Below, piece after piece: positions 1-26,530 of a stretch of DNA of 26,862 nt. Both the position numbers and the translations under genes were made by a program. A model generated the notes under the pieces. The model worked only from the letters and a program-made list of their open reading frames with translations, did not search any database and was not told where the DNA came from. Source of the DNA: a virus (Duplodnaviria; Caudoviricetes); IMG/VR virus record IMGVR_UViG_3300002301_000058, positions 1 to 26,862 of that record; one strand, given 5' to 3'. How positions within the stretch are numbered: the stretch's first letter is position 1; every line of letters begins with the position of its first letter.

Positions 1-5
1 CTCCT

Positions 6-209
6 TTAAAACGAACCCATTCCCGGCAACTCTCGCATCGGACCTTTGATATCCTCGCGGTTGAAAATTTGCTCGACGGCTTTGCCGTCCCGATTAGGCA
101 GCGCCAAGATCGCTTGATCTCCTGATGGGAGGACATGAACGCACAAGCCGGCGACCGCCGAACTATCGCGCTTCATGTACCACATGCCAACGCAGGGCGT
201 TAAAGCCAT
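6..209 (-). CDS. small hypothetical phage protein (left small-ORF array)
   Basis: 67 aa ORF, ATG preceded by AGGAG; packed head-to-tail with 219..485. Confidence 0.6.
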   Translation of the reverse strand: MALTPCVGMWYMKRDSSAVAGLCVHVLPSGDQAILALPNRDGKAVEQIFNREDIKGPMRELPGMGSF

Positions 210-218
210 CGGTCGCTC

Positions 219-485
219 CTATTTCTCTAGCGAGACTTCCCGACGCCCGATCTGTTCGAGCGTGAAAGTTCTGCCGTTGTTACTTCCCAATTCTTTGATG
301 CCTCGGGCACGCATCGCGGCAGCTACGATGTCGCAGAACTCTCCGTACCAGTCGCCAGTGTCTTTGACTTGTGCAATAGCGTCGATCAGGTTGCCCATCT
401 GATACTCGTTCAGCGGCACCATCGTATATTCGCTATACTGACCCGCAGTATGAATGAACTGCGCCCAATTCGAAATGTCGGTCAC
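219..485 (-). CDS. small hypothetical phage protein ending in LEK*
   Basis: 88 aa, GTG start after AGAAGGAG; C-terminal SLEK-stop matches the tails of the right-hand cassette ORFs. Confidence 0.65.
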   Translation of the reverse strand: MTDISNWAQFIHTAGQYSEYTMVPLNEYQMGNLIDAIAQVKDTGDWYGEFCDIVAAAMRARGIKELGSNNGRTFTLEQIGRREVSLEK

Positions 486-511
486 GGCCGCTCCTTCTCT
501 GTTGCCTTGAT

Positions 512-712
512 TTACCGGCCAATCGAGTCTCTGAGAATGATCTGAATTTGTCGCAAAGCATCCTCACCGGGGATCCCAACTTCCAATTGTCCCGGCAGTG
601 TCCGTCCAGCTTGGAAACCAGAAAGCCAGCAACGTACTTTGCCGATTTCACGATAAAGCATTTCGGCTCGCTCGGCGTCGCAGTCCTTAAGAGTGATATT
701 TTTCTCAACCAC
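512..712 (-). CDS. small hypothetical phage protein
   Basis: 66 aa, GTG start after GAGGAG. Confidence 0.6.
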   Translation of the reverse strand: MVEKNITLKDCDAERAEMLYREIGKVRCWLSGFQAGRTLPGQLEVGIPGEDALRQIQIILRDSIGR

Positions 713-803
713 GCTTTGGATCTCCTCGACGCGCTAAAGCACGCATAAAAATTTCCTCATAAGTTTCTGGCAATCGAACAAGTGCCCATGGACACCTCAC
801 CAT
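705..803 (-). CDS. 32 aa hypothetical peptide (not in ORF track)
   Basis: MVRCPWALVRLPETYEEIFMRALARRGDPKRG*; strong AGAAGGAG SD; end overlaps the next start. Confidence 0.45.
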   Translation of the reverse strand: MVRCPWALVRLPETYEEIFMRALARRGDPKRG

Positions 804-820
804 ATCAGTCTCCTTCTCTG

Positions 821-943
821 CTAATGCCACTCGATGGCAATTTCTCGGCCATGCCCGTCAAGCCAAATGAAGCAATAACGCCATTGCTGGTGACAGGCGC
901 TCGTCGTCGGATACAGCCGAAGAAATGGACCGATGATCGTCAT
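821..943 (-). CDS. 40 aa hypothetical peptide
   Basis: ATG at 943 (MTIIGPF...) follows GAGGAG just after the recombinase stop; shorter than the 821..1003 track ORF. Confidence 0.45.
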   Translation of the reverse strand: MTIIGPFLRLYPTTSACHQQWRYCFIWLDGHGREIAIEWH

Positions 944-960
944 TGGGACGCGCTCCTCAT

Positions 961-1575
961 CTATGAATCCTTTCGGACCCATTTTTGCTTTTGCGTATCC
1001 CAACGCCAGAAAGCATATATGCTCGCCGCCGAGACTTGGAACTGCTCTGCAACCTGCGGGCCGGTCTTGCCGCTGTTGAGTAGTTTACCGGCACGCGCGA
1101 TCTTCGCGTCGGTCATGATCCGCTTGCGGCCCCATTCCCACTTCTCGCCATCCTTGAGTTTTGCCCTGATCGCGTCGAGGCCAGCCTTGGTCCGCTCGGC
1201 GATAAGGTCGCGCTCGAAGGCGGAGACGGCGGTAGTTATGCCCATGACAAGCCGCCCAACTGCGGATTTGGTGTCGAGCATTTCCGTGAGGCTAACGAGC
1301 CCGACGCCCTTGGCTTTGAGCTGATCGAGCAGCGCGTATAGCTGAGGCGGCGATCGCGTAAGCCGGTCGAGTTTCCAAACAACCAGGGTGTCACCGTCCC
1401 GGCAGTCCATAAGAGCGTCCTTAAGCCCGGGGCGCTTCTTGCTGGTGCCGGATGCCTTGTCGAAATGCAGATTGTCCTCGAACACGCCGAATTTGCGGAG
1501 CGCGTCGAGCTGCAAATCGAGGTTCTGTTCCTGGGTAGAGACGCGGGCATAGCCGACAAACCGGATTTCTACCAT
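961..1575 (-). CDS. small serine recombinase (resolvase/invertase, Pin/Hin/TnpR family)
   Basis: GYARVST catalytic-Ser motif, QNLDLQ, GDTLVVWKLDRL, FERDLIAERTKAGL, GRKR arm and C-terminal HTH (GPQVAEQFQVSAASIY). Confidence 0.95.
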   Translation of the reverse strand: MVEIRFVGYARVSTQEQNLDLQLDALRKFGVFEDNLHFDKASGTSKKRPGLKDALMDCRDGDTLVVWKLDRLTRSPPQLYALLDQLKAKGVGLVSLTEMLDTKSAVGRLVMGITTAVSAFERDLIAERTKAGLDAIRAKLKDGEKWEWGRKRIMTDAKIARAGKLLNSGKTGPQVAEQFQVSAASIYAFWRWDTQKQKWVRKDS

Positions 1576-1603
1576 TTCCTGACCGAATATTTTCTGTCAG
1601 AAA
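1576..1603. promoter_or_regulatory. candidate resolvase binding/crossover site (res site I-like)
   Basis: 28-bp imperfect palindrome TTCCTGACCGAATA|TTTTCTGTCAGAAA, 11/14 positions paired, central AT, abutting the recombinase start codon. Confidence 0.65.
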
Positions 1604-1617
1604 GTCGTATGGCATTA

Positions 1618-1646
1618 TTGACAAGCCGTCAAGGCGAGATTAGATT
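1618..1646 (+). promoter_or_regulatory. sigma70-type promoter driving the rightward small-ORF array
   Basis: TTGACA (1618-1623), 17 bp, TAGATT (1641-1646); the -35 is part of a TTGAC-N5-GTCAA palindrome. Confidence 0.65.
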
Positions 1647-1668
1647 TTTCACACCATAGAGATCGCCG

Positions 1669-1911
1669 ATGACTGATCCCCGCTATATGCGCCCAGGCTT
1701 AGACTTTGCTCGCGGCAAAGCGATTGAAGAACTCGGCGAATTGCAGGCCGCACTGGGAAAGTCCTTGCGGTGGGGTTGGGAGAGCGCCAATCCAGAACTG
1801 CCCCCCGAACAGCGCGAAACGAATATCGTCTGGGTGCAGCGTGAAATGAAAGATGTGCGCGACGCTCTCGATAATCTTGATCGAGAACTTGACGCTTACA
1901 TAGAGGGGTGA
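1669..1911 (+). CDS. MazG-like all-alpha NTP pyrophosphohydrolase
   Basis: EELGELQAALGK...REMKDV, i.e. the EExxE and ExxD pattern; 80 aa. Confidence 0.55.
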   Translation: MTDPRYMRPGLDFARGKAIEELGELQAALGKSLRWGWESANPELPPEQRETNIVWVQREMKDVRDALDNLDRELDAYIEG

Positions 1912-1930
1912 CGAAAGTCACTAAACGCCC

Positions 1931-2107
1931 GTGGCGAAAGAGAAGAAAGACCGTCGCATCTGCAAGTGCGAATGCGGCGGCATTGTTCGCGGTATTGAGC
2001 AATTCGGACGACTGTTTACGTGGTGCGAGAAATGCAGTCCGGTCGTGAGGATCAGCATTGACAGCATGCGAGACGACCACGTTCGCACCCTAGCAGGAAC
2101 GAGGTAA
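1931..2107 (+). CDS. 58 aa Cys-rich (zinc-ribbon-like) protein ending in LAGTR* (not in ORF track)
   Basis: GTG start; MAKEKKDRRICKCECGG...WCEKCSP...LAGTR*; fills the gap in the array exactly. Confidence 0.65.
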   Translation: MAKEKKDRRICKCECGGIVRGIEQFGRLFTWCEKCSPVVRISIDSMRDDHVRTLAGTR

Positions 2108-2113
2108 ACGCCC

Positions 2114-2353
2114 GTGAGTTTTGTGGAGCGGCTGAGAGCGGCAGCTAAAGAGCAGAGAGAGTCGGCTGACCGCGCCGGCTTTACGAAAACATTCGTGCGC
2201 TCAGTCGCCCTTTACAATGAAGCGGCCGACCGGATCGAGGCGATGCAAGCAATTCTTGATGAGATGATGGTCAAAAATCCAGTGCATGTTAGTCCAGCCG
2301 GGAATAGCAATCTACTGGAGTGGCGCACTCGTTATAGCAACCTGGAAAAATAG
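2114..2353 (+). CDS. hypothetical cassette protein ending in LEK*
   Basis: 79 aa, GTG start directly after the junction motif. Confidence 0.7.
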   Translation: MSFVERLRAAAKEQRESADRAGFTKTFVRSVALYNEAADRIEAMQAILDEMMVKNPVHVSPAGNSNLLEWRTRYSNLEK

Positions 2354-2357
2354 GCCT

Positions 2358-2606
2358 ATGACCCGCAGACAAGGAACCATCGCCGCCGTGGGAGCCATCG
2401 TAGGCTTTATGTCTCGCGGAGCTGTAGCCCAAGAAGCCACAAAACAAAATTTATGGCAATCGAATGGGACAGCGGCGAGCATCGCTTTAGAGCCGATGAG
2501 CATGACATTTGATCTTCGAACATTTAAGGATTTTACCTTCACGGAAGGCGACAGAACCGTAACTCTAACCCCGGCGCAATTGATGGATGCGCTTTTGGAG
2601 AAGTAG
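2358..2606 (+). CDS. hypothetical exported protein ending in LEK*
   Basis: ATG at 2358 after the junction motif; MTRR + hydrophobic stretch + AVA-Q resembles a (Tat-like) signal peptide. Confidence 0.65.
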   Translation: MTRRQGTIAAVGAIVGFMSRGAVAQEATKQNLWQSNGTAASIALEPMSMTFDLRTFKDFTFTEGDRTVTLTPAQLMDALLEK

Positions 2607-2610
2607 GCCC

Positions 2611-2835
2611 ATGAAACTATCGCCAAAACAATGCGAACATCTTCTTGCTCTAAAGAATGGGCCGCGCGGTTCTTATCCAGGGCTCCACATGGGAGTTCTT
2701 AATTCTTTAGCTCTCAAAGGATTAGTGAGTGCTACGCACGGAGTTGGTTCAATCGCAATGCCGCATACGGCTATCAAATGGAAATTGACGGACGCAGGCG
2801 AAGGCATTCTTCATGCTCTAGCAGGAACGAGGTAA
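2611..2835 (+). CDS. small winged-helix-like protein ending in LAGTR*
   Basis: ATG at 2611; KLSPKQ...LNSLALKGLV...WKLTDAG pattern typical of small phage wHTH proteins. Confidence 0.6.
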   Translation: MKLSPKQCEHLLALKNGPRGSYPGLHMGVLNSLALKGLVSATHGVGSIAMPHTAIKWKLTDAGEGILHALAGTR

Positions 2836-2842
2836 AGGCCCG

Positions 2843-3016
2843 ATGCCGCCGCCATCATTGCAACAGCGTATACGCGATCTGCGAATGCTGGCCGCGAACG
2901 TCGCGAAAGAGGATGACGACGTGAACGATCGCCTTACGGAAGCGTGCAACGCCTTGGAGGAAGTCGCCGATATCTTCCAAGAATTTCTTGACGCGCTCGC
3001 GCCGCTCGGCAGATAG
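2843..3016 (+). CDS. 57 aa helical hypothetical protein (not in ORF track)
   Basis: MPPPSLQQRIRDLRML...APLGR*; starts right after the junction motif. Confidence 0.6.
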   Translation: MPPPSLQQRIRDLRMLAANVAKEDDDVNDRLTEACNALEEVADIFQEFLDALAPLGR

Positions 3017-3028
3017 CAGAGAACGCCC

Positions 3029-3274
3029 ATGCCTGCGCCTAATCATATCGCAAAGCATTTCCTCAATTTTGGCATCCAAAATTGGGGGCAAACAGAGGGC
3101 CAACGAAAACAGGCCAAGGACCAATACCTGATCGCCGCCGGATTCAATTTGCCGGCACAACGAGGCGAAGCCGAAGAATGGCTTGATACCGTACTCGACA
3201 AGATGCCCTGGGGAAAGTTCGAGCGCGAAGTTGACCATCTTAAAGCTGCCCTTGCCGCGCGTATAGCAGTTTGA
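3029..3274 (+). CDS. hypothetical cassette protein
   Basis: 81 aa, start preceded by CGCCC. Confidence 0.65.
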   Translation: MPAPNHIAKHFLNFGIQNWGQTEGQRKQAKDQYLIAAGFNLPAQRGEAEEWLDTVLDKMPWGKFEREVDHLKAALAARIAV

Positions 3275-3286
3275 AGGAGAGCGCCC

Positions 3287-3475
3287 ATGAAAGTCGAGCA
3301 GTTACGCGAGATCGGCTTAAAGGTGATAGACGTGCTGCCAGACAGCAAAGATGCAATTACCGTTTTGGCAATCGTTTATGTCAACGTGACGCGAGCTTTT
3401 GGCTTGCCGGACGATGGTGCGATGGCGACCGTCGCGGCAGCCCTCAAAGAGCCGCATATCGATTTGGAGAAATAG
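3287..3475 (+). CDS. hypothetical cassette protein ending in LEK*
   Basis: 62 aa, AAGGAG SD within the junction motif. Confidence 0.7.
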   Translation: MKVEQLREIGLKVIDVLPDSKDAITVLAIVYVNVTRAFGLPDDGAMATVAAALKEPHIDLEK

Positions 3476-3480
3476 GACCG

Positions 3481-3711
3481 ATGGCAAGTTTTCCGGTGCT
3501 CGACTCCGACGATCTGAAAAATCACCTGATCGAGATTTCGCGCGATCCGGCATATCCGCTATCGACCACTGAGCGCGCTCTATACTCTTTGCTGACGCTC
3601 CCGATCATCGCGCAGTCAGCCTGCACCGAGGACGAACGCGAAGCCGTGATCCGCAATGTGACTGCCGCTATGGACGCCGCCGTTGCGGCGAGTAGCAGAA
3701 AGGCAAATTAG
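3481..3711 (+). CDS. hypothetical cassette protein
   Basis: ATG at 3481 (MASFPVLD...) after the junction motif; 76 aa. Confidence 0.65.
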   Translation: MASFPVLDSDDLKNHLIEISRDPAYPLSTTERALYSLLTLPIIAQSACTEDEREAVIRNVTAAMDAAVAASSRKAN

Positions 3712-3715
3712 GCCC

Positions 3716-4000
3716 GTGCCATTTGAGCCTGTGAGAACAAAGGCGGATTTAGATACCCTTGAGCCTTCCGAGATTTTGGAAGGTTATATATCCGCCGAGC
3801 GGGGCGACCCGGAGCCGGGAGAAAATAGAGGGCGCGCATTCTGGCATGGATGGCGCAATCGGATGATTGATTTGCGAGAACTCCCCCCAGACGACGCCTC
3901 TCGGCAACTCGCTCATGAAGTTGTCACGGCTCAACTAAGAGCCGGGAATGCAATTGCGAAACATGCTGCCGCCGAACGATATGGCGATTTGGAGAAATAG
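3716..4000 (+). CDS. hypothetical cassette protein with Rmf-like motif, ending in LEK*
   Basis: GTG at 3716; EGY...R..FWHGWR resembles the ribosome modulation factor GY...W..GWR motif. Confidence 0.55.
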   Translation: MPFEPVRTKADLDTLEPSEILEGYISAERGDPEPGENRGRAFWHGWRNRMIDLRELPPDDASRQLAHEVVTAQLRAGNAIAKHAAAERYGDLEK

Positions 4001-4005
4001 GCCCG

Positions 4006-4278
4006 ATGATTGAGATTGCATCAAATACCGATCAGGATGTTTGGATTGGCGCGGTTGAGGCTTGCCGTCGCTGGGCAAAGGAAGGGCTTGGTTTTAACTG
4101 CACTTTTGTCGATGACGACATGCGAGTGATCGTCGGACTAGCGCAGCGTGCAGTGCTCGCAGGGCTCGCTAGTGATGCTAAACCGGATATGCAGCGACGG
4201 TTTCGCGAAGCCGCAGAGCCGCATCGCGCCGAACATGAGAAGCAATTGGGGTGGCCGATCCCTAATTTGGAGAAATAG
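4006..4278 (+). CDS. hypothetical cassette protein ending in LEK* (last in array)
   Basis: 90 aa; ends TTGGAGAAATAG. Confidence 0.7.
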   Translation: MIEIASNTDQDVWIGAVEACRRWAKEGLGFNCTFVDDDMRVIVGLAQRAVLAGLASDAKPDMQRRFREAAEPHRAEHEKQLGWPIPNLEK

Positions 4279-4355
4279 TTCCGTCAGGCGTGTGGAATTA
4301 TTTCAAGCTTATCTACCTGCCGGGCAACGGCGCACGCCAATAGTAAGCATGCCCA

Positions 4356-4565
4356 TCAAAGAGACTTGATCTGAATATCCTTTTTAATGGAACCATTTAA
4401 TGCTTTCCGGCTTGAATCCAGAGCCAGATTCTTCAATTGCCTCCTGCTCAAAATAACGATCATGCACTCGCCGGCCTCATTGCCGATGACTAATTCAGCT
4501 GGGCTGTGCGGAGTGCGCTCTCGCATGTAGACTAACTTGAATTTAAGACCCTTGCTCGGGTTCAT
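4356..4565 (-). CDS. hypothetical protein
   Basis: 69 aa from the ATG at 4565 (upstream in-frame starts exist); convergent with the cassette array. Confidence 0.45.
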   Translation of the reverse strand: MNPSKGLKFKLVYMRERTPHSPAELVIGNEAGECMIVILSRRQLKNLALDSSRKALNGSIKKDIQIKSL

Positions 4566-4729
4566 CGCCCCCGTAGCATCCATTGATGCCCTCGACGTCG
4601 ATTTCGAACTCATCCTCAATTTCCGAATCATCGGGCATTAGGAATCGCCGCCTGGACGGCTTACGCCGCTGGCGCACAAGCCAATTCGCCTTTCGCCTTT
4701 TGCGCATAGGGTGGATGTTATCACGGCGG

Positions 4730-6145
4730 TCATATCTGCTCCGTGACAGCCTTTACCCGGAACCGCGGGCGGAGGGGCCGATCAACCGGCGGCGGCTCGT
4801 AAAGCGAGCCTTCCGATGGATCGCCGACCTCAATCCAGCGGATTTGCGCGATTTTGTGCCGTGGATGCATGGTAAAGAAAAGTTGAACGGCGGGCGTTGG
4901 TCTGAACCGGCCATCGCGGGAATATTCGGTCGGACCAGGCAAACAGCCGTTAACGAATCCTTCCTCAAGCTGGAGTGCCGTGTGCCAGTGCGCGAGCAAT
5001 ATCAAGTCCAAATGAATGCCACGCGCGGCGTAATCTAGAGTCATGCGTTTTAAAGCGCGGGCGGCCGCTGCTGCAGGCCCGATGAAACCGTGACCACCTT
5101 TAGAGCCTGTTTTATCTCCATGCGAAGCTACCAGACGCCAGCCATAAACTGAGAATAGGGCATCTGGAGAAGCTGGAACAAAGAACGTGATTCCTTCCTT
5201 GCCGCGCAACGTTAATTCTAGGAAATCCGAAACCAGCACATCCATACTTGTTGAAGCGGCTTCTTTTGATTCCGGCTTTTGCGAAGTCCGGCCATGATTG
5301 CCGCTAAGTGAAATAATATCGATTGGACAATTAACAGTTTCCTTGATGAGATTAATCGCCGTGATGAGATGGTCGGCTACGTCCCGCGCAGCTGGCAATG
5401 GCTTGATCTCATCGGTTTTCTGAAGCTCAAGAAATATAGCCCCAGACAACAAATCTCCGCCAAGTATCAATATGATTCTGTCCGGCGGCGGCCCAACCCA
5501 GTGTTTGGTGCAGAGGTCGCAGACTATATTGGCCCATCGCCCGAGTCGATTGCGAGCAATCGCTAGATTGAATGAATTTAGACCATCCATTGCATCTAAA
5601 AAAACATGCTCGCCCCACTGCAAATCAGAAAGAAACAACACCACTGTCTCAGCTTGTCCTGCTCCTTCGCTCCGGCTCGGAAACGATACCGGCGTCGGCG
5701 GCATCGCCATCAGGCCCATGTAGTTTTCGCGGACATTCTGTAGTTCGACTATCTGACGATGTGCTGCGGTGAGGTCGGCTTTTAGCTTGGCATTTTCATC
5801 GGCGTACCGGCGTCGTTCTATTTGGTCGAGAGGCTCGCTAACGCTAGGAGCATTAGGAGCAGCCGGCCATGGATTCGGCTCTGATGGTGACGGTGGCTTG
5901 TATTTGGTCCAATCGACTGAAAGACCAAAATACTTGTGATAGGTGCCGGGACGTTCTGGCGTCCCGACGCGATTGCTTAGAGTATGCTGAGAAAGATTCA
6001 GGCGCTCCGCAACTACACGAACGGCACCTTGAATGTCGCGGCCAAGAAAGATGCCTGGGGGAGGATGCCCGACTGCTAGGGCTTGTTCGACTTCCGCGAT
6101 TTCAAATAACGCCCGGTCGCGATTAACGCTAAGTTTTTGCGTCAT
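4730..6145 (-). CDS. calcineurin-like metallophosphoesterase with N-terminal HTH and coiled coil
   Basis: Motifs SDLQ (DxH variant), GGD, GNHG, HGD, AHWH in canonical order; N-terminal AVRVVAERLNLSQHTLSNR is HTH-like. Confidence 0.85.
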   Translation of the reverse strand: MTQKLSVNRDRALFEIAEVEQALAVGHPPPGIFLGRDIQGAVRVVAERLNLSQHTLSNRVGTPERPGTYHKYFGLSVDWTKYKPPSPSEPNPWPAAPNAPSVSEPLDQIERRRYADENAKLKADLTAAHRQIVELQNVRENYMGLMAMPPTPVSFPSRSEGAGQAETVVLFLSDLQWGEHVFLDAMDGLNSFNLAIARNRLGRWANIVCDLCTKHWVGPPPDRIILILGGDLLSGAIFLELQKTDEIKPLPAARDVADHLITAINLIKETVNCPIDIISLSGNHGRTSQKPESKEAASTSMDVLVSDFLELTLRGKEGITFFVPASPDALFSVYGWRLVASHGDKTGSKGGHGFIGPAAAAARALKRMTLDYAARGIHLDLILLAHWHTALQLEEGFVNGCLPGPTEYSRDGRFRPTPAVQLFFTMHPRHKIAQIRWIEVGDPSEGSLYEPPPVDRPLRPRFRVKAVTEQI

Positions 6146-6237
6146 CGCGCATTAGCAAACAAGAAGGTCATCATCTGAGAACCTTTATTTGTTTGGTCCG
6201 CAGGTACTTAGCCGATATAAGGTGACGATACCATGAC

Positions 6238-6267
6238 AAAAAAATGAGGCCGCTCGGTGCGGCCCCA
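6238..6267 (-). terminator. rho-independent terminator ending the late operon
   Basis: Minus strand TGGGGCCGC-ACCGA-GCGGCCTCA followed by T7. Confidence 0.75.
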
Positions 6268-6322
6268 AGTTTGTGTCGGGGGGACAAAATGCCCAGAACA
6301 GGGCGGGTTGGAATATGGCAGG

Positions 6323-6694
6323 TTATCTGACGTGAGACAAGACCCATTCGACAAGCCACTTCAGCCCAGCCTCCAAGACCCAGCCGACTGATACCAAGAC
6401 CACGAATCCTATGGCAGCCAAGCTTGTCAATTTGGCTTTCGTCAATTGTAGACCGGCAACCACTGGACCCAATAATTCCAAGGTCATCAGGCGCTCGTCT
6501 GTCTTGATCTGATAGTCAGTAAACTGACGCGCGCGATCATCCAACATAGCCGACAATCGTCCAACAGAGATTTGATTCTCTTTGTGCTCGCGGTCGCGTT
6601 CTTGGCGGTCATCTTCGGCGCGACGCTCCAATCCTTCAATCTTAGCCTTAATCTCGCCGAGCAGGAGGCTGATGTCGTCAAGCTTGGATGGCAT
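6323..6694 (-). CDS. coiled-coil protein with C-terminal TM helix (lysis-region membrane protein)
   Basis: Heptad-rich N-terminus, hydrophobic LAAIGFVVLVSVGWVL. Confidence 0.7.
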   Translation of the reverse strand: MPSKLDDISLLLGEIKAKIEGLERRAEDDRQERDREHKENQISVGRLSAMLDDRARQFTDYQIKTDERLMTLELLGPVVAGLQLTKAKLTSLAAIGFVVLVSVGWVLEAGLKWLVEWVLSHVR

Positions 6695-6721
6695 GGCGTC
6701 ATTGTCCCGTTGCTGGAATTA

Positions 6722-7174
6722 CTATCTCTGCCCACGACCACGCGCGAGCGACAAAGTCTCATCTAGCTTGTTGGTGATGGTCGTGAGTTGACGGTCGAAC
6801 ATCTTGATTTGCTCATTCTGTACCTTGGCATCGGCGGCTAAGCTGAGGATACCTCTCGTCGTCTCCTGTGCATTCTTGAGAAATTCTTCGCGGAGCTTGT
6901 CGCGGCTGGCTCTATCTTCGGCTAATGCCGTCTTGGCTTCTTCCGCTGCCTTGGCGCGTCTAGCCTCGAAATCCTGGAACCGCTGTTCTCGTTCCGCCTT
7001 CTCCGTTTTCAGCGCCTCTTCGTTGGCGGCAAGTCGCCAGTTTGTGACGTAATAGAATCCGATCGTTGTCACCGCGCCAGTGAGAACCGCGCCGCCGAAA
7101 ACCGTAAGCATCAAAGTCAGCGCGCCGAAATGACGGCCTACCGCTGATACAGTGGCTCGCGGCCGGGTCGTCAT
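6722..7174 (-). CDS. N-terminal TM plus long coiled-coil protein (possibly spanin-like)
   Basis: TM ALTLMLTVFGGAVLTGAVTTIGFYYV, then charged coiled coil; ATGA overlap with the upstream gene. Confidence 0.65.
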   Translation of the reverse strand: MTTRPRATVSAVGRHFGALTLMLTVFGGAVLTGAVTTIGFYYVTNWRLAANEEALKTEKAEREQRFQDFEARRAKAAEEAKTALAEDRASRDKLREEFLKNAQETTRGILSLAADAKVQNEQIKMFDRQLTTITNKLDETLSLARGRGQR

Positions 7175-18218: not shown

Positions 18219-18773
18219 TTATTCAAATCTCGCAAATTCGCCGTATAATTCAACTGCTCGCGCACAATAAACCCGATGTCCTTCCTCTGGATTATTAAAA
18301 CGTCCCAAGTTTTCATATTTCCCTTTGTGGACTCTAGTGCGCACAACCCATTTGTTATTTATTGCATCCCAGCTAACACCTTTAAAACCGGACTTATTGT
18401 CTCGACGCTTCCTCGTATTTCTCATGTTTTGAACATGCGTTGCTGGCCGCAGATTACAAATGCCATCTCCAGCCTCAATTCCATTTTTGTGATCTAATTC
18501 TTTTGGCCATTCGCCATGAACAATCAGCCAAATAATATGATGCACTTGATAGGCGCGGTCCCAAATTCTGATGGTTCGATAGCCATTTTGAAGTTGATGC
18601 CCAGCTTCTTGGCCCGCATATGTCGAATTCCATCTTTTGCAAATCGTTTCTTTTGATAATCTTTCCCCATCTTCAAACATTTCTGGAATACGGGCTTTCC
18701 AAACGAGGCGACCTGTGGCCGCATCACAGATTAGTAAGGCCCGAACTTCCGTCGCTGTTGGTTTCTTTGTCAT
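18219..18773 (-). CDS. HNH-AP2 homing endonuclease
   Basis: HHIIW...DHKNG...NLR.AT..QN; NKSGFKGVSW...AP2-like tail ending YGEFAR. Confidence 0.92.
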   Translation of the reverse strand: MTKKPTATEVRALLICDAATGRLVWKARIPEMFEDGERLSKETICKRWNSTYAGQEAGHQLQNGYRTIRIWDRAYQVHHIIWLIVHGEWPKELDHKNGIEAGDGICNLRPATHVQNMRNTRKRRDNKSGFKGVSWDAINNKWVVRTRVHKGKYENLGRFNNPEEGHRVYCARAVELYGEFARFE

Positions 18774-25771: not shown

Positions 25772-26530
25772 TTATAGCCCTACCATGTCATGTTGGACCG
25801 CAGCCTCGAAGTGGAGAATGTCTGGCCAGGCGCAGCAGCGTACCTCAGCAACTTCGCGTATTCTGTTGCCTTTCGATTGGTTCACTTTCGTCGGCACTAC
25901 TTGCAAATTCGTCTCAACATGAAGGCCGCACATCACTTTCGATTGCAGCGGATAGATGTGGTCCACTTCATGCGGAATACCTATCTCGCGAGTCAGTCGT
26001 GCGGCTTGTTCATAAATCATTTTGATTTTGTTCAAATCGGCCCATGCCGGAGTCGCATTTAATTTGGCCGCTATATAGCGCGCCAAAGCCGCCGCCTTCA
26101 CATGCGGTTTTTCTTTGGCATATTTTCTAGCATATGCAGAACGATATTCTGGATTACGTCGTAGCCAACTAGCATTAGAGGCCGCCATGATCTCTGGATG
26201 TTCTTCTCGATATTTTTTCGAATACGCCAGACGATAAGGACGATTTCGCTGCCGATAATCTGAATGACAATCACGGCACCATGAACTCACACCACTCGCT
26301 GTACTGCGATCTTTGCTGAACTCTGCAATTTCTTTCTCTATGCCGCAAGAAGTACAAGTTGCTTTCTCGCAGACTACAATAGTTCGCGCAGAGATGATTT
26401 GCTCGCGTCGAATGCTTCGACAATCTGAGCACCATTTACGTAGACTATCGCTTCGGCTTCTATCTTTGCCAAAAGCCGATAAAGGTTTTTCAATTTTGCA
26501 GCGCCGACAGATTTTCATCATGGCGCTCAT
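25772..26530 (-). CDS. HNH endonuclease with tandem CxxC zinc fingers
   Basis: Two CxxC...CxxC modules; HEVDHIYPL...GLHVETNLQ...N.SKGN; TAATG overlap with the sheath stop. Confidence 0.88.
   Translation of the reverse strand: MSAMMKICRRCKIEKPLSAFGKDRSRSDSLRKWCSDCRSIRREQIISARTIVVCEKATCTSCGIEKEIAEFSKDRSTASGVSSWCRDCHSDYRQRNRPYRLAYSKKYREEHPEIMAASNASWLRRNPEYRSAYARKYAKEKPHVKAAALARYIAAKLNATPAWADLNKIKMIYEQAARLTREIGIPHEVDHIYPLQSKVMCGLHVETNLQVVPTKVNQSKGNRIREVAEVRCCAWPDILHFEAAVQHDMVGL

Follow-up and report, generated by a model that had tools for sequence, protein, structure and literature searches.

Integrons are recognized by the integrase IntI, the attI and attC sites, the promoter Pc and rows of gene cassettes, and arrays of this type without a working enzyme are known as CALINs. 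Their attC sites are long imperfect palindromes with RYYYAAC and GTTRRRY boxes. Tiny orphan genes abound in phage genomes. It has long been asked how phages acquire and swap them singly, and the process is usually ascribed to rare illegitimate recombination. Here we analyze a row of 11 small genes, joined by a repeated junction, that lies next to a serine recombinase gene in the single-contig virus record IMGVR_UViG_3300002301_000058 of IMG/VR (positions 1 to 26,862); this whole stretch of 26,862 nt is referred to as the window.

Several described systems invite comparison with this locus. Cluster K mycobacteriophages have start-associated sequences (SAS) and extended start-associated sequences (ESAS); SAS follow one 13-bp consensus across the right, non-structural half of the genome and are kept with the same gene families (PMC3203893). 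The promoter early stem-loop elements (PeSL) of T4-type phages are units of a promoter and a terminator stem-loop that are exchanged by recombination between repeats (PMC2839356). The serine transposase TnpA of IS607 needs only a GG target for insertion and thus provides a precedent for a 2-bp target (PMC6188088).

The array and its junction are real. They belong to a module that is spread over unrelated phages, shows near-total gene turnover, breaks at a CC dinucleotide within the junctions, keeps a TG at a set spacing from this CC, and stands beside recombinases with conserved catalytic residues. What this analysis adds is the spacing of the half-site, the breakpoints at CC and the cores that differ by arm. 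Judging from the sequence, the adjacent recombinase is likely to catalyze the exchange of the cassettes.

A two-armed module around a serine recombinase gene

The window is a fragment of a myophage genome, and its remaining genes, on the minus strand, are baseplate, tape-measure, tail-fiber and endolysin genes. The module is built from two arms around the recombinase gene and a predicted sigma-70 promoter, with the array as the right arm (11 open reading frames (ORFs) of 57-94 aa, 1669-4278, plus strand). A previous sequence-only reading had described these 11 ORFs correctly, and all nine 23-mers that it had aligned are found where it placed them. It had counted nine copies of a 23-bp junction; the repeat stands, while the right arm actually contains 11 gene-end junctions (the additional cores are at 1928 and 3026), and their conserved information lies mainly in the 13 bases that precede the CC core. 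The neighbor is, as it had proposed, a serine recombinase, here an intact PF00239 protein; the second arm on the minus strand had escaped it. The features are as follows.

6-943, minus strand: left arm with five small ORFs (821-943, 705-803, 512-712, 219-485 with an LEK end, and 6-209)
961-1575, minus strand: gene for a small serine recombinase of 204 aa, first gene of the left arm (PF00239, E 7.7e-40, and PF02796)
1595-1623, no strand: 29-bp inverted repeat TGTCA...TGACA, presumably res-like or operator-like, overlapping the -35 box
1618-1646, plus strand: predicted sigma-70-type promoter for the right arm, TTGACA-17-TAGATT, 10 of 12 consensus matches
1666-1667, plus strand: CC before the first cassette; cassette-1 homologues elsewhere start matching here, behind unrelated tails
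1669-1911, plus strand: cassette 1, 80 aa, weak match to a MazG-like nucleotide pyrophosphohydrolase (phrog_4856, E 5.8e-4)
1904-1930, plus strand: junction of the GTGAC-hairpin type, core CC at 1928; near-identical copy in L113 after an unrelated gene
1931-2107, plus strand: cassette 2, 58 aa, LAGTR end; junction 2091-2113, core 2111
2114-2353, plus strand: cassette 3, 79 aa, LEK end; junction 2335-2357, core 2355
2358-2606, plus strand: cassette 4, 82 aa, LEK end; junction 2588-2610, core 2608
2611-2835, plus strand: cassette 5, 74 aa, LAGTR end; junction 2819-2841, core 2839; 60% identical homologue in L289
2843-3016, plus strand: cassette 6, 57 aa; short junction 3013-3028, core 3026
3029-3274, plus strand: cassette 7, 81 aa; junction 3264-3286, core 3284
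3287-3475, plus strand: cassette 8, 62 aa, LEK end; junction 3457-3479, degenerate core
3481-3711, plus strand: cassette 9, 76 aa; junction 3693-3715, core 3713; homologues change their follower at 3714/3715
3716-4000, plus strand: cassette 10, 94 aa, LEK end, phrog_4460 (unknown function); junction 3982-4004, core 4002
4006-4278, plus strand: cassette 11, 90 aa, LEK end (from the ORF list)
4260-4282, plus strand: terminal junction, the orphan end of the right arm, with no array gene after it

The ORF list thus bears out the claim that five array proteins end in LEK and two in LAGTR directly before the stop. Each of the left-arm ORFs stands behind a junction with a similar tail, in which AGG followed by the core AG replaces the core CC. 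The recombinase carries the Resolvase domain at residues 7-139 and a helix-turn-helix (HTH) domain (HTH_7) at residues 149-187. It has the R-x-S, R and D-R-x-x-R signatures and the C-terminal HTH of a small serine recombinase; the catalytic residues R11, S13, R48, D70, R71 and R74 are intact and are invariant across 52 homologues.

Since a search for sigma-70-type sites gave three where 3.4 were expected, the call of the predicted promoter rests on its position and conservation; TTGACA or a close variant occurs in all 13 intergenic regions examined. As in integrons, this predicted promoter adjoins the recombinase gene and lies upstream of promoterless cassettes, and on the array strand neither a promoter nor a terminator was predicted at the junctions. 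The same 29-bp inverted repeat is present in L001, and repeats of 25-33 bp are found at the corresponding place in L003, L114, L115, L280 and L287; none was called in L116, L276, L285 and L289. Only three of the 11 array proteins have any match, all of them weak or to proteins of unknown function. PADLOC gave no match among 13 window proteins, and Rfam found no structured RNA in window positions 1-7000.

Anatomy of the junctions

We ranked the junction sites with a leave-one-out position weight matrix (PWM). Seven of the nine sites scored above all 53,671 remaining window positions (both strands), site 2588 was beaten by one position and site 4260 by seven; this ranking rules out a chance repeat. 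The exact window junction had no match in IMG/VR. Two window junctions keep a degenerate core in the fixed register (AC at 3477 and TC at 4280), and TAGCA is found at -20 in five of the 11.

A CC lies within nine bases of the start at 95 of 99 internal array junctions and in nine of the 24 other window genes, a count that is partly circular because 15 array starts were hand-placed from anchors that mostly contain CC. Matches to the junction PWM form one cluster per genome over a scattered background in the nine module-bearing phage records introduced below. The motif is therefore not a translation signal used throughout the genome. In an alignment anchored on CC (112 of 127 ends could be anchored), information is present only at positions -13 to +1. 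The dinucleotide TG begins at -12 (positions -12/-11) in 31 of the 75 distinct sites at loci identified through their protein, with counts of 0-4 at the other offsets; control sites have it in 8.7% of 1,340 cases, and it is retained in 28 of 69 sites when the commonest tail is left out. The distance from TG to CC is fixed and that from CC to the start codon varies, so ribosome spacing fails to explain the TG-CC geometry; the sequence-only reading had noted another fixed distance, from TAGCA to GCCC, as exceeding the needs of a Shine-Dalgarno sequence. At least 38 TG-type variants of the junction exist, one tail can be read in different frames by different genes, and the TG is frequently outside any stop codon.

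Before the AG core of the left arms, TG occupies -12 in 11 of 54 sites and TA in 10 of 54 (control TG: 8% of 804). At a locus kept out of the derivation (L324), two of nine script-called sites have TG at -12 and two of nine have TA. No gene follows the last junction of an arm, and the core of this terminal junction abuts the stop of a convergent ORF of at least 150 codons in four of 12 cases.

Tn3 has TG-N21-CA as its site III, and its site I exceeds this by 3 bp (10.1101/2021.12.07.471667). These lengths imply 13-bp arms around a 2-bp core, and the junction fits one such arm within one base. Read in this way, it looks like one resolvase half-site, a TG-started arm with a CC core. Among the 11 gene ends of the window, attC boxes (RYYYAAC/GTTRRRY) were found in none; bottom-strand folds had z below -2 in two, with no common structure. 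Small GAAA-loop hairpins occur in two long tail types (window 1908-1921 and the right arm of L113), each of which recurs after unrelated genes.

The module recurs beside related recombinases

Close homologues of the recombinase (49-67% identity over nearly the full length) are encoded at L001/L002, L003, L033, L113, L114, L115, L116, L280 and L323. A divergent array module accompanies the recombinase in 10 of 10 close homologues, with almost wholly different gene content. We counted stop-CC-start links per 2.5 kb as a neutral measure in the eight clade loci of sufficient length and obtained 8, 10, 3, 9, 7, 8, 6 and 3. At 189 other serine-recombinase loci the same count ranged from 0 to 4 (115 with 0, 47 with 1, 12 with 2, 10 with 3 and 5 with 4). 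A quick tree computed for 75 proteins places the ten rows with arrays inside one 15-row group (Shimodaira-Hasegawa-like approximate likelihood ratio test (SH-aLRT) 90). Four of the other five rows of this group, read by eye, have the module in other dialects, L117 weakly so. Generic resolvase-pattern scans of 1/64 metagenome parts and 3/64 genome parts returned at least one clade member and many controls.

The active recombinases, including that of the window, form what we call family A; resolvase-fold proteins without the catalytic serine form family B. Nine module-bearing phage records share few gene families, and none is common to all nine. Family A is present in five of five of its records and family B in three of three; a resolvase-fold gene is the sole consistent companion of the module across the nine. 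A scan that started from the motif yielded 19 rows: four beside family A, three beside family B, five arrays near contig ends and seven single matches, which were counted as chance (one of them, in L284, was read and lies inside a long tail gene). With a second motif, three of three rows were in modules. The same module was found at the locus kept out of the derivation, a bacterial prophage. A tyrosine integrase (PF00589) is encoded in two of 10 relative records.

Alphaproteobacteria are the probable hosts, judging from a GcrA gene in L280 and from a prophage-like module copy in a genome that belongs to the same family as a Tardiphaga metagenome-assembled genome. The best cultured-phage matches to the window recombinase are 47% identical and annotated as DNA invertases. 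Deep-branching recombinases were seen with GTGAGT-type junctions in both arms (L191, both sides of 1697) and with TG one base nearer to CC (L121, upstream of 2984), a hint that recombinase and junction site covary across deep branches. At L323 and L324, the left arm is split by a transposase-like ORF (L323:360-1420), which may be IS1595-like, and ends near a sequence resembling a tRNA 3' end (L324, about 5620-5700), suggesting a prophage boundary.

Turnover of cassettes and breakpoints at CC

Across 119 right-arm cassettes from 17 loci, homology between loci is confined to a few groups, and five of 113 cassettes of relatives match Pfam. Where a gene recurs, its surroundings differ. A homologue of cassette 5 sits among different neighbors in the array of L289, the second gene of L001 recurs with different neighbors in the left arm of L003, and one gene is found in L281, L278 and the left arm of L001 with other neighbors each time. 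Cassette 9 recurs in L293 at 91% identity with both neighbors and the tail changed, and L033 and L323 have the first gene in common and diverge directly after its junction.

Breakpoints were located on short, low-depth contigs from runs containing the window. Beyond 3714/3715, a single allele of a cassette-9 homologue, identified by its shared variant positions, is followed by three different sequences (one in runs X1 and X2, one in X5 and one in X8). Homologues of cassette 1 start at 1666, the CC before the start codon, behind unrelated tails, and two such variants occur within run X2. The test that the sequence-only reading had set, cassette gain, loss or reordering in relatives, hence came out in its favor: gene order is not fixed, and the breaks fall at the CC of the motif.

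Tandem junctions without an intervening gene, i.e., empty cassettes, were seen in L033 (about 6650-6690) and in record 24 of run X8. Cassette ends present twice, each time before a different follower, and an incomplete tandem copy (the head and tail of one cassette) were observed at L281:1-90/393-480, in cassettes 4/7 of L287 and at L323:3290-3509. One cassette, at L293:1091-1282, has a PF04957 match (ribosome modulation factor family; E 5.7e-7). A shufflon-type inversion between the arms was considered and judged unlikely, as the heads stay arm-specific; one right-type junction is present in the left arm of L003.

Arrays beside a resolvase-fold protein without the catalytic serine

Family B genes stand beside arrays at four loci.

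L276, 7810-8388, minus strand: family B gene
L285, 3806-4390, plus strand: family B gene
L287, 10270-10827, plus strand: family B gene
L289, 8998-9570, plus strand: family B gene

A family B model (predicted local distance difference test (pLDDT) 85.9) superimposes on gamma-delta resolvase with Z 14.7 and a root-mean-square deviation of 2.6 over 111 residues, gives a Foldseek match with E 1e-5 and retains the C-terminal three-helix domain. Family B aligns Q, L, A and C to R11, S13, D70 and R71 and hence lacks the catalytic serine and arginines; neither the serine column nor the positions close to it hold a conserved nucleophile, and R-x-S is kept in three of 148 distant family B matches. Because the profile-profile comparison of the two families is weak (probability 1.7, E 0.029), their homology rests on structure and a later alignment. 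The family comprises 184 clusters at 50% identity, and some members of about 290 aa have an extra domain. It had no match among cultured phages and was not found in 401 genomes sampled from one alphaproteobacterial order. The recognition helices of families A and B differ, yet the same tails occur beside both.

A possible mechanism and its rivals

We favor, with a probability of roughly 0.55, a one-sided serine recombination that family A would carry out at the CC core, with the arrays beside the dead enzyme as non-autonomous copies. A cassette unit would then consist of 0-8 nt, a start codon, the ORF, a stop-bearing tail and CC. The recombinase would read the one half-site in each cassette tail and cut at CC. 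Synapsis of two directly repeated junctions and strand exchange at their 2-bp cores would excise a cassette circle, which could re-enter any other junction, each product again being a valid site. The AG core of the left arm would prevent recombination between the arms. Since the tails would bring both the stop and a ribosome site, any new cassette order would stay translatable from one promoter. The arrays beside family B may, by analogy with CALINs, be non-autonomous copies that are regulated by the dead protein, with the recombinase supplied in trans. The full picture of a phage analogue of the integron is put forward more tentatively, as something just short of an even bet: cassettes would be excised, inserted and reordered through a single half-site with its 2-bp core, the CC and AG arrays would be orthogonal and run from one divergent promoter, insertion at CC/GG would spread the module between unrelated phages, and a widespread dead sister family would host non-autonomous arrays.

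A number of observations weigh against recombination by family A. Three family B records that are 99-100% complete carry arrays without any PF00239 match, and TG at -12 before CC is present in these family B arrays as well (13 of 25 sites, four loci); an active recombinase in cis is thus not required to carry an array. The tie between array and recombinase proposed by the sequence-only reading therefore holds for all close homologues and breaks down in these near-complete phages, where the neighbor is a dead resolvase-fold protein. TG at -12 is absent from over half of the sites, a minority-to-half signal, and the statistics on the TG-CC spacing overstate independence because the tails share a common ancestry. 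An ordinary Shine-Dalgarno sequence likewise includes the AG seen in the left arm. Ordinary resolvase or invertase sites carry a second, inverted half-site; no mirror half-site was found beyond CC, CA being at the mirror position in eight of 78 sites, much as at adjacent offsets. Homologous genes also exchange tails and internal halves, so that other recombination acts too. The origin of the tail of a new gene, and the replacement of tails by local dialects, are left unexplained by the model. Three junction-linked genes amid an ordinary-looking early region (L271:750-1480) have no resolvase-fold gene in the 750 bases upstream. Finally, the assembled contigs of eight runs, about seven of which may themselves be the source of the window DNA, contained no excision circle, rearrangement or internal joint of the window array, which does not imply absence of excision because contigs drop rare variants.

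In the leading rival reading, the junctions would be stop-plus-restart linkers between which short-homology recombination, by phage single-strand annealing or by the host, takes place as at the PeSL of T4. The part of the resolvase-fold protein, active or dead, would then be confined to control of the divergent promoters or to resolution of the module at a res-like site of its own. The persistence of arrays beside a dead homologue with no active one, tails of 13-25 bp that are near-identical between phages and hold stops and Shine-Dalgarno-like purines, internally mosaic ORFs, and a res- or operator-like inverted repeat that overlaps the promoter all fit such linkers. Yet cassette-1 alleles follow tails with little in common but CC, the TG-CC distance is constant where the CC-start distance is not and the TG frequently belongs to no stop codon, terminal junctions are retained without a downstream gene, and no annealing-protein family common to the nine module-bearing records was found. 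We therefore regard short-homology exchange as unlikely, if still a serious competitor. Appreciably less probable is a stoperator-like role, in which the resolvase-fold protein would bind the junctions and act along both operons as a repressor or roadblock, with the exchange at gene borders a by-product. An asymmetric site of about 13 bp between genes, oriented with transcription and clustered near the gene of the protein, suits this role, as do the fold and C-terminal three-helix domain kept by the dead family and the shifts of motif dialect on deep branches; identical tails beside families A and B with their differing recognition helices, and the low information of the site, do not, and the CC breakpoints and the invariant catalytic residues of family A would be unaccounted for.

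Evidence from breakpoints and spacing names no enzyme. The CC junction could accordingly be a true recombination site served by an enzyme of the host or a helper element, or by family B through a non-canonical chemistry; family B is, after all, large and conserved and occurs in three unrelated phages. We judge this the most improbable of the alternatives: the nine records share no other gene family, and the serine column of family B and its surroundings offer no conserved nucleophile. Recombination by family A thus remains our preferred reading, and with it the module offers, for the swapping of orphan genes, a site and a breakpoint that are both defined, along with a candidate enzyme. If one half-site and two bases of homology indeed suffice, small serine recombinases would have a new mode of action, which might also serve as a tool. 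In any case, the arrays form a readily mined pool of accessory genes. In a literature search whose reach ended short of supplements and most subscription papers, we found no description of the module or of family B; as far as searched, the system is therefore undescribed, and the module and its large pseudo-recombinase family would be new to that literature even if short-homology exchange were the cause.

Other features of the window

An exonuclease-family gene (4730-6145, minus strand) adjoins the lysis genes, and two HNH/endonuclease VII genes lie amid the tail genes (18219-18773 and 25772-26530, both minus strand). Window positions 900-4400 are nearly unchanged in freshwater-, soil- and marine-labelled runs from 2017 to 2024, several of which are possibly the source of this DNA.

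Comparison with known systems

The module shares with integrons and CALINs a recombinase gene that diverges from promoter-driven single-gene cassettes of mostly unknown function, a site at the 3' end of the cassette, duplicated and empty cassettes, and the occurrence of some arrays without a working enzyme. It differs in its serine enzyme, in a junction of 13-23 bp without attC boxes or a consistent fold, in its presence in phages, in the overlap of the junction with the stop codon and its supply of a ribosome site, and in having two arms with different cores. The sequence-only reading had already set it apart from a classical integron, and rightly so: the neighbor belongs to PF00239 and is not a tyrosine IntI.

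Like SAS, the junctions are short asymmetric repeats before the starts of small non-structural genes, with Shine-Dalgarno-like purines, an internal stop, a CCC end and one orientation. The module sites stand in one cluster per genome beside a resolvase-fold gene, have many dialects and differ between homologous genes, so we do not count them as SAS; a link of SAS to a recombinase is not described in the available part of PMC3203893. PeSL resemble the junctions as repeated intergenic elements, located in hyperplastic regions, at which genes are gained, lost and replaced, and circles have been reported for them (PMC2839356). The module has one promoter per arm, none per gene and no per-gene terminator, and its switches share only CC, which sets it apart from PeSL.

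With the Tn3/gamma-delta resolvases, Hin/Gin and Sin (10.1101/2021.12.07.471667) the recombinase has the fold, the catalytic residues and the C-terminal HTH in common, and the TG-started arm of 12-13 bp and the res-like inverted repeat at the divergent promoter are further likenesses. The sites of those enzymes consist of two inverted half-sites and recombine as two copies of a single site, whereas the junctions are single half-sites with many per genome. IS607 (PMC6188088) offers serine chemistry, a GG/CC dinucleotide as the sole requirement on one side and no target duplication. Its TnpA carries the DNA-binding domain at the N terminus and mobilizes one element; the window recombinase, in which the Resolvase domain precedes the HTH, is of a different build and would move promoterless cassettes.

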